From Gemmatimonadota bacterium (GTDB taxonomy: Bacteria; Gemmatimonadota; Gemmatimonadetes; Palauibacterales; KS3-K002): 64,000 bases of DNA. The position numbers and the translations under genes are program-made. This document shows positions 24,747 to 27,584 of this stretch, one piece after another. Under the pieces are notes generated by a model. The model worked only from the letters and a program-made list of their open reading frames with translations, ran no database searches and had not been told where the DNA came from. Where the stretch lies: the NCBI GenBank assembly GCA_020344215.1, contig CP070815.1:2600644-2664643 (forward strand), written 5' to 3'. Numbering within the stretch: the first letter of the stretch is position 1; each line of letters opens with the position of its first letter.

Positions 24747-27584
24747 GTGAAGAGGGCGAACATGCGTCCTAGGAGATGGCTAGGCCGGTTTGGTGCGACC
24801 GCCTTCCTAGCGGCGTTCTTCCCCGCTGCGGCAGGATCGGCCGCGGCGCAGGACAACAGCATGTGCCTGATGTGCCACGAGAACCAGGCCTTCTTTGCCG
24901 GCAAGGAAGACCCGTCAAGGTACGTCGTAACCGAGCAGCAGCACGACCGCTCTCTGCACGGGGCGCAAGGCGTGCTCTGCACCGACTGCCACCGCGGACT
25001 CACCATCCCGCACCCGGAGGAGCCGCAGCTGGCCGACTGCTCCGTCTGTCACAACGATCAGACGACCCAGCACAGAGGATCGCTGCACGGGCAGGCGGCG
25101 GCACGCGGTGACCCGCTGGCGCCGAGTTGCGCGGATTGCCACGGCACCCACGACATCCAGGCGAGCAGCGACCCCAGGTCGATGACCTACGTCTTCAACA
25201 TCCCGCTCCTCTGTGGTGAGTGCCATCACGAGGGGACGGAGGTATCCAGAACGCACGATATCCCTCAAAACCAGATCCTGGAGAACTACTCGCTGTCGAT
25301 TCACGGCGAGGGGCTCTTCAGGCAGGGTCTGACGGTGACCGCGGTCTGCACCTCCTGCCACACCTCACACTTCATCCTGCCGCATACCGATAGGCGCTCG
25401 AGCATCCACGAATCGAACGTCGTAGGCACCTGCACCCAGTGCCACGCGTTGATCGAGGAAGTGCACGACCAGGTGATCGAAGGGAGGCTGTGGGAAGAGG
25501 AGCCGCACGTTATTCCCGTCTGCGTCGACTGCCACTCACCGCACAAGGTGCGCAGGGTGTTCTATAACGCGGGCGCGGCGAACGCCGACTGCATGCGCTG
25601 CCACTCCGATACGAACCTCACGATGGAGCGGGACGGCGAGAGCATCTCGCTCTACGTCGACGAGCAAGCCTACAACACTTCTACACACGGCGGGACTGGG
25701 TGCGCCCAGTGTCACGCCGATGTCACGCCCTCGTTGGTGGCCCGTGCTTGCACGACAGCGGTTGCAGCGAACGTCGACTGTGGTCTCTGCCACGCCCCGC
25801 AGCTGGAGGCCTACAGTAGTGGGATGCACGGATCCCTGGCCGCCGATGGCGTGTCCGAGGCACCCGTCTGCCTCGACTGCCACAGTCACCACGCGACTCA
25901 GGACCACCTGTGGCCAACGTCAGAGACATTTGCGCGCAACGTACCGGACCTCTGCGCGCGCTGCCATCGCCAAGGCGAGGCCGCCGCCAGGCGGATAAAC
26001 CATATGGGGCCGGATATCGTCAACAGCTACGTGATGAGCATTCACGGGAAGGGGCTCATCGAGAGTGGTCTCGTAGTCACGGCGACCTGTCCTAGTTGCC
26101 ACACCGCCCATAAGGAGCTGCCACCGAACGATCCGGAATCCTCGGTCCACCGTGACAACATCGCGGCCACATGCGGCACCTGTCACCACGGCATCGAGGA
26201 GGAGTACAGTGAAAGCATCCATTGGATAGCCAAAGAGGACGCGCCCGACGATCGTGAGCTGCCCAGCTGCGAGGACTGCCACACCTCGCACACCATCAGC
26301 CGCACCGACCGCGGGGACTTCCGGCTGACAATGATGGACCAGTGCGGCCGCTGTCACACCGAGGAATCGGAGACCTTCTTCGATACGTTCCACGGCAAGG
26401 TCTCGAGGCTGGGCGACGCCGGCGCCGCCAAGTGCTACGACTGTCACGGTACGCACAATGTCCACCCGATCATCGATCCCAGGTCTACGCTCAGCCGTCG
26501 GAACATCATCGAGACCTGCGCCCAGTGCCATCCCGGCGCCAACCGGCGGTTCACCGGCTACCTGACCCACGCCACTCACCACGACCCGGAGAAGTATCCG
26601 TACCTGTTCTGGGCGTTTTGGGGAATGACGGCGCTACTCGTGGGCACCCTCAGCTTCGCCACTCTCCACACCTGCTCCTGGCTCTGGCGGCTTTGGCGCT
26701 CGCCGGAGGCGTGGAAGTTGGCGAGGGAGCACCGGGAACCGGCGCCGGGTGAGCGGCTCTACCGGCGCTTCACCACCTTCGAGCGCACGATGCACCTCGT
26801 GATGCTGCTCAGCTTTTTTGTGCTGGCGATCACCGGGATGACGCTCAAGTTCTCTTACATGGGCTGGGCACAGATCCTGGCCGGCGCGGCCGGCGGTTTC
26901 GCGACTACCGGCGTGTTGCACCGGCTGGCCGCGATCACGCTGATAACGGTCTTCCTTGTACACTTGGGCGACGTCTATCGCCGTAAGCAGACCTCGGGGA
27001 AAGGCTGGATGGAATTCATCTTCTCGGACAGCTCCCTGATCTTCAACAGGAACGACGCCAAGGAGTTCGTCGCATCTATCAAGTGGTTTTTCGGGCGCGG
27101 CCCGCGTCCGCGCTACGGACGCTACACCTATTGGGAGAAGTTCGACTACTTCGCGGTGTTTTGGGGGATGTTCATCATCGGCTCGACGGGGCTGCTGCTC
27201 TGGTTCCCCGAGTTCTTCACGCTGGTCTTGCCGGGCTGGACGGTGAACGTGGCGACCATCATGCACAGCGACGAGGCGTTGCTGGCCGTCGCCTTCATCT
27301 TCACCGTGCACTTCTTCAACACCCACTTCCGGCCTGACAAGTTCCCGATGGACCCGGTAATCTTCACCGGCCGCATCACGGTGGAGGAGCTGAAGAACGA
27401 CAAGCCCAGGGAGTACGAGCAGCTCTTGGCGAAGGGCAACCTCCAAGAACTTCTGGTCCACCAGTATCCAAAGAAGCTGCAGCGCTTGTTCCGCGTCCTC
27501 GGGTTCTCGGCCTTGGCAGTCGGGCTGACGCTGATTGTCGTGATCCTCTACACGATGATCATCACCTACCTCAGACAGATCTGA
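24747..27584 (+). CDS. Giant multiheme c-type cytochrome (19 CxxCH motifs) fused to a C-terminal HydC/FdnI-type dihaem cytochrome b membrane domain (CbcL-like quinol oxidoreductase architecture)
   Basis: Signal peptide and 19 CxxCH motifs counted by eye in residues 1-570. C-terminal domain of about 370 aa has several TM helices with conserved His (RFTTFERTMHLVMLLSFFVLAITG, HRLAAITLITVFLVHL), like Ni/Fe-hydrogenase b-type cytochrome subunits. Confidence 0.9.
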   Translation: MKRANMRPRRWLGRFGATAFLAAFFPAAAGSAAAQDNSMCLMCHENQAFFAGKEDPSRYVVTEQQHDRSLHGAQGVLCTDCHRGLTIPHPEEPQLADCSVCHNDQTTQHRGSLHGQAAARGDPLAPSCADCHGTHDIQASSDPRSMTYVFNIPLLCGECHHEGTEVSRTHDIPQNQILENYSLSIHGEGLFRQGLTVTAVCTSCHTSHFILPHTDRRSSIHESNVVGTCTQCHALIEEVHDQVIEGRLWEEEPHVIPVCVDCHSPHKVRRVFYNAGAANADCMRCHSDTNLTMERDGESISLYVDEQAYNTSTHGGTGCAQCHADVTPSLVARACTTAVAANVDCGLCHAPQLEAYSSGMHGSLAADGVSEAPVCLDCHSHHATQDHLWPTSETFARNVPDLCARCHRQGEAAARRINHMGPDIVNSYVMSIHGKGLIESGLVVTATCPSCHTAHKELPPNDPESSVHRDNIAATCGTCHHGIEEEYSESIHWIAKEDAPDDRELPSCEDCHTSHTISRTDRGDFRLTMMDQCGRCHTEESETFFDTFHGKVSRLGDAGAAKCYDCHGTHNVHPIIDPRSTLSRRNIIETCAQCHPGANRRFTGYLTHATHHDPEKYPYLFWAFWGMTALLVGTLSFATLHTCSWLWRLWRSPEAWKLAREHREPAPGERLYRRFTTFERTMHLVMLLSFFVLAITGMTLKFSYMGWAQILAGAAGGFATTGVLHRLAAITLITVFLVHLGDVYRRKQTSGKGWMEFIFSDSSLIFNRNDAKEFVASIKWFFGRGPRPRYGRYTYWEKFDYFAVFWGMFIIGSTGLLLWFPEFFTLVLPGWTVNVATIMHSDEALLAVAFIFTVHFFNTHFRPDKFPMDPVIFTGRITVEELKNDKPREYEQLLAKGNLQELLVHQYPKKLQRLFRVLGFSALAVGLTLIVVILYTMIITYLRQI

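Follow-up and report, generated by a model that had tools for sequence, protein, structure and literature searches.

We analysed a stretch of 64,000 nucleotides from a Gemmatimonadota bacterium (contig CP070815.1, positions 2,600,644 to 2,664,643 of the forward strand), called the window below, and focused on a gene at 24747-27584 that encodes a 19-heme cytochrome c fused to a dihaem cytochrome b membrane domain. We consider it likely that this fusion is an inner-membrane bc-cytochrome of the CbcL/MtrH/MtoC family, which would link the quinone pool to an outer-membrane cytochrome conduit. The gene and its main parts are the following:

24747-27584, plus strand: 19-heme c / dihaem b fusion gene, from the list of open reading frames (ORFs), the GC content of third codon positions (GC3), the identical NCBI protein P0001 and the ribosome-binding-site context
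24747-24848, plus strand: Sec-type signal peptide, residues 1-34 (...AAGSAAA/QD), from a hydrophobic segment at residues 15-33 followed by an AxA motif; the cleavage site is predicted
24849-26582, plus strand: periplasmic multiheme c domain with 19 CxxCH motifs and 21 conserved putative distal-ligand His (residues 40-595), from motif count, conservation and Pfam
26598-27581, plus strand: six-helix membrane domain (residues 618-945), made of transmembrane helix (TM) 0, an FdnI-like core of TM1-4 and TM5, from PF01292, hhalign, AlphaFold2 (AF2) and Foldseek
26793-26795 (H683), 26919-26921 (H725), 27264-27266 (H840) and 27309-27311 (H855), plus strand: putative heme-b ligand codons, from the FdnI alignment

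The ORF runs without interruption or frame break and comprises 945 aa counted from the GTG at 24747. Its GC3 is uniform at 0.84, which is typical of real genes in a sequence of 66% GC. The start is likely the ATG at 24762, giving a protein of 940 aa, since an AGAGGG ribosome-binding site lies 5 nt upstream of it (better than that of the GTG) and this start agrees with the 940-aa call of NCBI. Protein P0001, annotated in an NCBI Gemmatimonadota metagenome-assembled genome (MAG) on a 4.74-Mb contig, is identical to the fusion. A scan for promoters and terminators around the gene returned counts at the level of shuffled sequence. A preliminary description of the locus had reported a fusion gene with 19 CxxCH motifs and a polytopic C-terminal domain, followed downstream by hypCDE, and the ORF, the motif count, the hydropathy and the Pfam assignments all agreed with it. 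Its domain sizes needed correction: the periplasmic part comprises about 585 aa instead of about 570, and the membrane part about 326 aa instead of about 370.

Exactly 19 CxxCH motifs are present at residues 40-591 of the fusion, which has two other Cys only and no CX3-4CH or CxxCK variant motifs; shuffled versions of the protein contained a mean of 0.1 and a maximum of 2 CxxCH. The N-terminal part was assigned to the Pfam domains Cytochrome_C7, Cytochrom_c3_2 and Paired_CXXCH_1, and a PDB sequence search with the c domain recovered unspecific multiheme matches. We compared nineteen-heme sequences from across phyla: the 38 Cys and 19 His of the motifs were invariant in 59 out of 59 sequences, and another 21 His of the periplasmic part were conserved at 95% or more, while no Met was conserved. 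All 19 c-hemes are apparently bis-His ligated, because 21 conserved non-motif His are sufficient for every heme and a conserved Met is absent. We also considered membership of the NapC/NirT family, but the Cytochrom_NNT match was marginal (25.2 vs 24.1 bits), covered residues 33-87 only and lacked the N-terminal anchor of that family; thus, we judged it a motif-level similarity. Orthologues with 21 or 23 CxxCH were found in some lineages (Thermoanaerobaculia, Sulfomarinibacteraceae, an FCB-group MAG and Zixibacteria; loci L016, L020-L023, L027, L030, L031, L035, L066 and L070).

Hydropathy placed the membrane helices at residues 620-640, 677-702, 722-744, 802-828 and 835-860, and the AF2 model added a sixth helix at 909-944, with a predicted local distance difference test score (pLDDT) of 64-89 over residues 620-945. 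The Pfam family PF01292 (Ni_hydr_CYTB) matched this part with 37.6 bits, above its gathering cut-off of 30.1, so that the profile searches suggested in the preliminary description returned PF01292 for the C-terminus and multiheme families for the N-terminus. A family profile of 74 sequences aligned with E. coli FdnI in hhalign (88% probability, E 2.8e-6, 201 columns), and in this alignment H683, H725, H840 and H855 corresponded to the FdnI heme-b ligands H18, H57, H155 and H169. Six His of the membrane domain (H641, H683, H725, H739, H840 and H855) were conserved in 74 out of 74 sequences. The conserved heme-b His expected earlier, whose absence would have spoken against a dihaem domain, are thus all four in place. 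In the Foldseek search against the PDB the only significant match was FdnI, 1kqf_C (E 1.7e-4, TM-score 0.76, rmsd 4.0 Å); the PDB sequence search with the membrane domain gave a weak FdnI match (E 0.021), and the NCBIfam equivalog model for FdnI, TIGR01583, covered residues 673-891 at 40.8 bits, far under its cut-off of 115.85. E. coli HyaC aligned with 0.4% probability and over TM1 only in hhalign, and its structure 4gd3_A was recovered by Foldseek with E 1.5 and TM-score 0.54. We conclude that the C-terminal domain is a dihaem cytochrome b, specifically FdnI-like within PF01292 and not hydrogenase-like; from the hydrogenase or formate-dehydrogenase cytochrome b layout proposed initially, only the formate-dehydrogenase half was retained. 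The charged loops (positive-inside rule) together with the FdnI alignment point to an FdnI-type topology. Among the 41 window ORFs scanned with Pfam, no molybdopterin oxidoreductase or FdnH-type ferredoxin domain was found that could represent a catalytic FdnG/FdnH-type partner.

Two of the six invariant His, H641 (26667-26669) and H739 (26961-26963), have no FdnI counterpart. They were also conserved in 11-12 out of 12 paralogues that carry 11-13 hemes and share 25-33% identity with the fusion. These two residues may ligate a third b-heme or belong to a quinone site.

The fusion architecture is real and widely conserved. In the protein database we recovered more than 120 clusters of 894-1048 aa with 63-100% identity to the fusion, from independent assemblies that included closed multi-megabase contigs. 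A scan of one genome per species detected at least 594 matching stretches; the best 80 of these covered nearly the whole query (most from residues 1-40 to about 941) at 45-68% identity and belonged to more than 10 phyla. They included Gemmatimonadota, Acidobacteriota (Thermoanaerobaculia, Bryobacterales, Holophagales), Woeseiaceae, Ignavibacteria/Melioribacter, Zixibacteria, Eisenbacteria, Krumholzibacteria, Phycisphaerae (Planctomycetota), Hydrogenedentes, KSB1 and Myxococcota. An artefactual joining of two genes through an assembly or sequencing error, the alternative raised when the fusion was first described as a single gene, would have to recur in hundreds of independent assemblies, closed contigs among them, and to leave a uniform GC3 and an unbroken frame; we regard its probability as negligible.

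The 19-heme arm contains an internal repeat, which consists of two copies of an eight-heme module:

24927-25625, plus strand: module copy A, residues 61-293, hemes 2-9, from self-BLASTP against residues 304-543
25656-26375, plus strand: module copy B, residues 304-543, hemes 10-17, tandem duplicate of A, from self-BLASTP and heme spacing

The two copies shared 36% identity (E 9e-53), and the heme spacing 30, 28, 45, 28, 30/32, 23/25 recurred in both. Shorter paralogues of about 640-730 aa with 11 hemes were present in many loci, and their spacing prefix (38, 20, 30, 28, ~43, 28, 30) and suffix (28) were those of the fusion. Taken together, heme spacing and repeat indicate that the 19-heme arm arose through tandem duplication of an eight-heme module within an ancestor of the 11-heme type. 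The 11-heme paralogue (5-6 TM) often adjoins the 19-heme gene (L004, at 17774-19777, L008, L010, L011, L013, L014, L017, L019, L023, L035, L041, L066 and L068, among others), so many organisms carry two length classes of bc-cytochrome in one cluster; no shorter bc-cytochrome paralogue was found in the window. An exhaustive search with the membrane domain identified 2,400 representatives at E ≤ 1e-3, of which 410 reached E ≤ 1e-30. In full-length matches, which ranged from about 290 to 1,126 aa, this domain was located at the C-terminus or a few residues from it. A membrane domain that stays C-terminal in proteins of such varied length suggests that the family is modular in the length of its heme arm.

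Downstream of the fusion, on the opposite strand, we found a cluster of cytochrome genes around a putative porin:

34081-34482, minus strand: 133-aa tetraheme periplasmic cytochrome, a possible shuttle, from Pfam Cytochrome_C7 and four CxxCH; L001 and L004 have a similar gene
34669-35895, minus strand: 408-aa cytochrome with four CxxCH in class-I domains, a possible periplasmic link to oxidases, from Pfam Cytochrom_C and Cytochrome_CBB3; its place in the pathway is presumed
36068-37039, minus strand: decaheme cytochrome of about 300 aa (10 CxxCH), putative partner inside or on the periplasmic side of the barrel, from Pfam Mtrc-MtrF_II-IV_dom and multiheme matches; the role is suggested by gene order and synteny with L003 and L004
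36970-38493, minus strand: 507-aa outer-membrane β-barrel ("porin"), from AF2, Foldseek and synteny
38663-40303, minus strand: 9-heme cytochrome with a lipoprotein signal (LAVGC), putatively surface-exposed, from CxxCH count, N-terminus, Pfam multiheme matches and a weak DmsE-family match

The 507-aa protein matched no Pfam or NCBIfam family at E ≤ 1. Its AF2 model (pLDDT 82.9, predicted template modelling score 0.75) comprised about 22 long strands and gave 349 Foldseek matches in the PDB at E ≤ 1e-3, the best 50 of which were all outer-membrane barrels. MtrB was absent from these best 50 of 349, so the protein could not be placed in MtrB/PioB or a known porin-cytochrome complex (Pcc) barrel family. 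The layout at 36068-40303, in which a barrel gene is flanked by a 10-heme and a 9-heme (lipobox) cytochrome, is that of Pcc/Mtr-like clusters. As listed, the decaheme ORF begins 70 nt before the barrel gene stops, and its N-terminus looks non-native before the hydrophobic segment; its true start is therefore probably internal.

We examined the surroundings of the fusion in 76 loci that contained a full-length homologue, and counted neighbours in the 64 loci with at least 8 kb of flank, taking cytochromes with at least 4 hemes within 6 kb. Strict all-against-all clustering (60% coverage, E < 1e-10) broke up the divergent families of porins and cytochromes and gave too low an estimate of synteny; thus, we used iterated profile searches and per-locus maps instead. 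Another cytochrome with at least 4 hemes was present in 43 out of the 64 loci, and 13 of the 64 had a nearby paralogue with 8-13 hemes fused to a b-type domain. A barrel gene was found directly downstream of the fusion in 11 loci. In related Gemmatimonadota it is the homologue of the 507-aa protein that follows the fusion directly (median gap 138 bp), and a cytochrome with 11-16 hemes comes after it. The path from the inner to the outer membrane through the downstream cluster, as envisaged in the preliminary description, is therefore plausible and backed by synteny, with the barrel gene about 140 bp downstream in relatives and the 507-aa protein modelled as a barrel. Finally, counting over all loci, a neighbour of about 500 aa with the heme spacing of G. 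sulfurreducens ImcH (49, ~108, 117, 20, ~40) was identified in 9 loci. These ImcH-pattern neighbours comprise about 470-530 aa, 5-6 CxxCH and three N-terminal TM (L019, L020, L034, L037, L038, L048, L049, L058 and L082). By this spacing pattern, the ImcH/CbcL gene pairing extends to Woeseiaceae, Ignavibacteria, Bacteroidota, Zixibacteria, Holophagales and KSB1.

Among the other genes of the window, those that immediately precede the fusion (21830-24465, plus strand) encode a regulator of the ArsR/SmtB type and an HMA-domain P1B-type ATPase for heavy metals; this arrangement is shared with the closest relatives L001, L002 and L033 only. The porin-cytochrome cluster is bordered, next to its 9-heme lipoprotein, by a gene for a GGDEF diguanylate cyclase (40648-41622, minus strand), and a CDF cation-efflux gene lies at 44736-45965 (minus strand). 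An aerobic respiration cluster occupies 57371-63449, with the heme A synthase CtaA (57371-58330, plus strand), subunit I of an aa3-type heme-copper oxidase (61052-62830, minus strand) and small neighbouring ORFs.

Between the fusion and the porin-cytochrome cluster lie six hyp genes (27765-33733), all with full-length Pfam coverage and apparently intact:

27816-28118, plus strand: hypC, with the N-terminus MCLGVP as the probable true start; the ORF as listed begins at 27765
28111-29247, plus strand: hypD, from Pfam
29244-30296, plus strand: hypE, from Pfam
30443-32716, minus strand: hypF, from Pfam
32718-33512, minus strand: hypB, from Pfam
33395-33733, minus strand: hypA, from Pfam

With hypCDE directly downstream and hypFBA next on the other strand, the preliminary description had suggested that the fusion could be a hydrogenase membrane anchor, replacing HyaC/HydC of a periplasmic [NiFe]-hydrogenase and wiring H2 oxidation into the heme chain. 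PF01292 also contains hydrogenase cytochromes b, and [NiFe] large subunits were found near the fusion in 3 out of the 76 loci (L002, L033 and L035, from two phyla), with the hydrogenase operon within about 3 kb. In L002 (73% identity) in particular, a complete [NiFe]-hydrogenase operon separates the fusion from hypCDE, exactly where the window has its 180-bp gap, and contigs 20892 and 20362 each carry a fusion homologue and an L002-type hydrogenase. The L002 operon encodes both hydrogenase subunits, the small one bearing a Tat motif, as well as HycI and its own 241-aa PF01292 cytochrome b. A separate PF01292 cytochrome b of 230-241 aa in the adjacent hydrogenase operon was confirmed in both L002 and L035, which argues against an anchoring role of the fusion, as does the alignment of its b-domain with FdnI and not with HyaC. 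Moreover, hyp genes were near the fusion in only 1-3 of the 76 loci, all of them close relatives. In the 64-kb window, tblastn with the four proteins of the L002 operon (both subunits, cytochrome b and HycI) detected no [NiFe] structural genes. Among the 120 matches listed for the L002 large subunit, down to 79% identity, none was on the 4.74-Mb contig, although a more distant hydrogenase is possible. The fusion stop is separated from hypC by 180 bp to the listed ORF and by 231 bp to the probable start at 27816, and hypC probably has its own start and a promoter-like site. We therefore rejected the anchor, which we consider very improbable.

In L001 (84% identity) hypFBA alone are kept, hypCDE having been lost along with the hydrogenase. 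The comparison of L002, L001 and the window, together with the linkage in 1-3 of the 76 loci, indicates that the hyp adjacency is a lineage-specific juxtaposition; the hyp genes are probably the remnant of a hydrogenase island, complete in relatives, that seems to decay or rearrange step by step. A looser link from H2 through quinone to the fusion is possible in those lineages that keep the hydrogenase.

According to the mechanism that we propose, the Sec signal would export the N-terminal domain, whose 19 c-hemes would form a periplasmic electron wire, and TM0 would return the chain to the cytoplasm. The FdnI-like four-helix bundle would then hold two b-hemes, one between H725 and H840 near the periplasmic face and one between H683 and H855 near the cytoplasmic face, before the sixth helix ends the protein. 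Family membership and synteny suggest that the b-hemes would connect a quinone/quinol site with the heme wire by moving electrons through the membrane, and that the wire would exchange electrons, in one direction or the other, with multiheme cytochromes of the periplasm and the outer membrane. Its putative partners in this genome would be the decaheme cytochrome, the β-barrel and the 9-heme lipoprotein of the cluster at 36068-40303.

Several points weigh against this proposal. The assignment to the CbcL/MtrH/MtoC family rests on indirect evidence, namely a published table and matching layouts, and both the heme loading and the quinone binding of the fusion are predictions. The invariant H641 and H739 are not explained by the two-heme scheme of FdnI. 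In the AF2 model of the full-length protein, the pLDDT falls below 50 over residues 169-278, 413-460 and 502-612, and the model of the heme domain is thus too poor to judge the shape and reach of the wire. The porin-cytochrome genes of the window are located 8.5 kb away on the opposite strand, so that co-expression is not implied. Finally, no cytochrome neighbour was found in 21 out of the 64 loci, and the fusion may have a role outside extracellular electron transfer in some lineages.

Those 21 loci, without another multiheme gene within 6 kb, would also fit a protein that stores electrons in the periplasm like a capacitor, or that serves periplasmic reductases as a general quinol:cytochrome c relay. 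Nineteen hemes offer a large charge capacity, and CbcL together with PpcA has been described as an electron reservoir (PMC9129911). Against such a role, most loci have multiheme cytochromes, barrels or ImcH-like genes alongside, and the number of hemes, exactly 19, and the intervals between them are so strictly conserved that a defined geometry seems more likely than storage in bulk; we find a store or relay unlikely.

With respect to the direction of electron flow, members of the CbcL/MtrH/MtoC family are found in Fe(III) reducers as well as in Fe(II) oxidisers and show no sequence feature that separates the two directions (PMC6295460), so the direction is not readable from sequence. Quinol oxidation toward extracellular acceptors is slightly favoured by the imcH homologues that adjoin the fusion in nine loci, since imcH is reported in Fe(III) reducers only (PMC6295460). 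The system may also work in reverse, as an MtoC-like quinone reductase that receives electrons from extracellular Fe(II), reduced minerals or humics via the porin-cytochrome complex and the 19-heme arm. The occurrence of the family in Fe(II) oxidisers agrees with this, and so do the last heme intervals of the fusion, which fit MtoC/MtrH rather than Geobacter CbcL. In FdnI (1KQF), the closest structural match, electrons flow from the periplasm to quinone. The aa3-type oxidase and CtaA of the window indicate that the host is an aerobe, which keeps electron uptake possible, and the class-I c domains of the cluster point the same way. Besides the imcH pairing, the points against reverse working are that no Cyc2 or MtoA marker was identified and that inward flow to a quinone site on the cytoplasmic side would cost much energy if the donor had a modest potential. 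We therefore put electron uptake forward tentatively, as the less probable direction.

It is through CbcL-type bc-cytochromes that electrons of the quinone pool enter extracellular electron transfer and, to our knowledge, the biochemistry of these proteins covers the nine-heme Geobacter protein only. The 19-heme form is conserved motif for motif in Gemmatimonadota, Acidobacteriota, Woeseiaceae, Ignavibacteria, Zixibacteria, Planctomycetota and other sediment and soil lineages, and these largely uncultured, partly aerobic groups thus become candidate organisms that may respire minerals or electrodes, or take up electrons. For annotation, the hyp neighbourhood is misleading: the gene is better named as a quinone-pool cytochrome of the CbcL/MtoC family than as a hydrogenase subunit or a generic "cytochrome c3". 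A bolder and rather doubtful reading joins these observations. The 19-heme arm, lengthened by module duplication, would be rigid and span the periplasm, plugging directly into the barrel-cytochrome complex, which would give a shuttle-free path of about 40 hemes from the quinone pool to the surface. H641 and H739 would bind a third b-heme or build a quinone site on the cytoplasmic side, with outward flow driven by the membrane potential, and the classes with 9, 11, 19, 21 and 23 hemes would represent tuning to the geometry of the envelope. If the long arm does bridge the periplasm alone, its design would depart from the model of soluble shuttles that applies to Geobacter and Shewanella.

The fusion has the characteristics by which the CbcL/MtrH/MtoC family is recognised, namely an exported N-terminus with multiple CX2CH motifs, six C-terminal TM and a HydC/FdnI-like b domain with His ligands. 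Zhong & Shi 2018 (PMC6295460) catalogued homologues of this family from 15 phyla, with 416-1034 aa, 3-23 CX2CH and mostly six TM. Their Table S2 lists MAF27600.1 from Gemmatimonadetes (951 aa, 19 CX2CH, 6 TM), as well as the 19-heme entries OGU58019.1 and OGV21847.1 from Ignavibacteria, where entries of 944 and 952 aa are given (PMC6295460). MAF27600.1 belongs to the same subfamily as the fusion: its 19 motif positions are those of the fusion shifted by +13, and its six TM are equivalent. This listing supports the earlier description of the protein as CbcL-type with about twice the heme count. The 19-heme entries of Table S2 are tabulated only, with no analysis of function, synteny, duplication or His residues for that class. 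A literature search aimed at the 19-heme class recovered nothing relevant, and one on extracellular electron transfer in Gemmatimonadota recovered general surveys only. The 19-heme class of the family was thus already catalogued in 2018 and is uncharacterised experimentally. Three of our observations go beyond the literature that we read: all 19 hemes are strictly conserved across phyla, the eight-heme module is duplicated in tandem, and the membrane domain has two extra invariant His.

FdnI, the γ subunit of E. coli formate dehydrogenase-N (1KQF chain C), shares with the fusion the four-helix dihaem b bundle and the four aligned His ligands. It is a separate subunit of 217 aa that docks FdnGH, whereas the fusion has two extra helices and a 19-heme domain in the place of FdnGH. 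The fusion further differs by its two extra invariant His and by its score against the NCBIfam FdnI model (40.8 vs 115.85).

MtoC (Daro_1404, Galf_2006) and MtrH (Rfer_4073), nine-heme proteins of Fe(II) oxidisers and Rhodoferax, have the same domain order and six TM as the fusion, and their first (38-40, 20-25) and last (25, 30, 28) heme intervals match. Their genes are clustered with those of outer-membrane porin-cytochrome complexes (mtoAB, mtrAB), as in the window, but the window barrel is not recognisably MtrB/MtoB, given the missing family match and the position of MtrB outside the best 50 structural matches. Compared with the 9 hemes that MtoC and MtrH carry in about 655-673 aa, the fusion has ten more, gained partly by the eight-heme duplication.

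CbcL (GSU0274) of G. sulfurreducens is an inner-membrane bc-cytochrome that acts as a menaquinol oxidase for low-potential extracellular acceptors, with PpcA receiving its electrons and the redox potential gating its activity (Zacharoff, Chan & Bond 2016; PMC9129911; bioRxiv 10.1101/2022.08.31.506072). Its layout is that of the fusion: an N-terminal multiheme c domain is followed by six TM with a HydC/FdnI-like dihaem b core, and the start-to-start spacing of the TM is similar (66, 48, 78, 34, 78 in CbcL and 57, 45, 80, 33, 78 in the fusion). Bis-His ligation has been measured for the nine hemes of CbcL (PMC9129911), whereas in the fusion it is predicted from the conserved His. In Desulfuromonas acetexigens, homologues of ImcH and CbcL are encoded by neighbouring genes with consecutive accessions (PMC12133095), a pairing that resembles the one between imcH homologues and the 19-heme fusion in our nine loci. 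The two proteins differ in size (9 hemes and 619 aa in CbcL; 19 hemes and 940 aa in the fusion) and in N-terminal heme spacing, and while CbcL hands its electrons to the soluble triheme PpcA, the arm of the fusion is twice as long.

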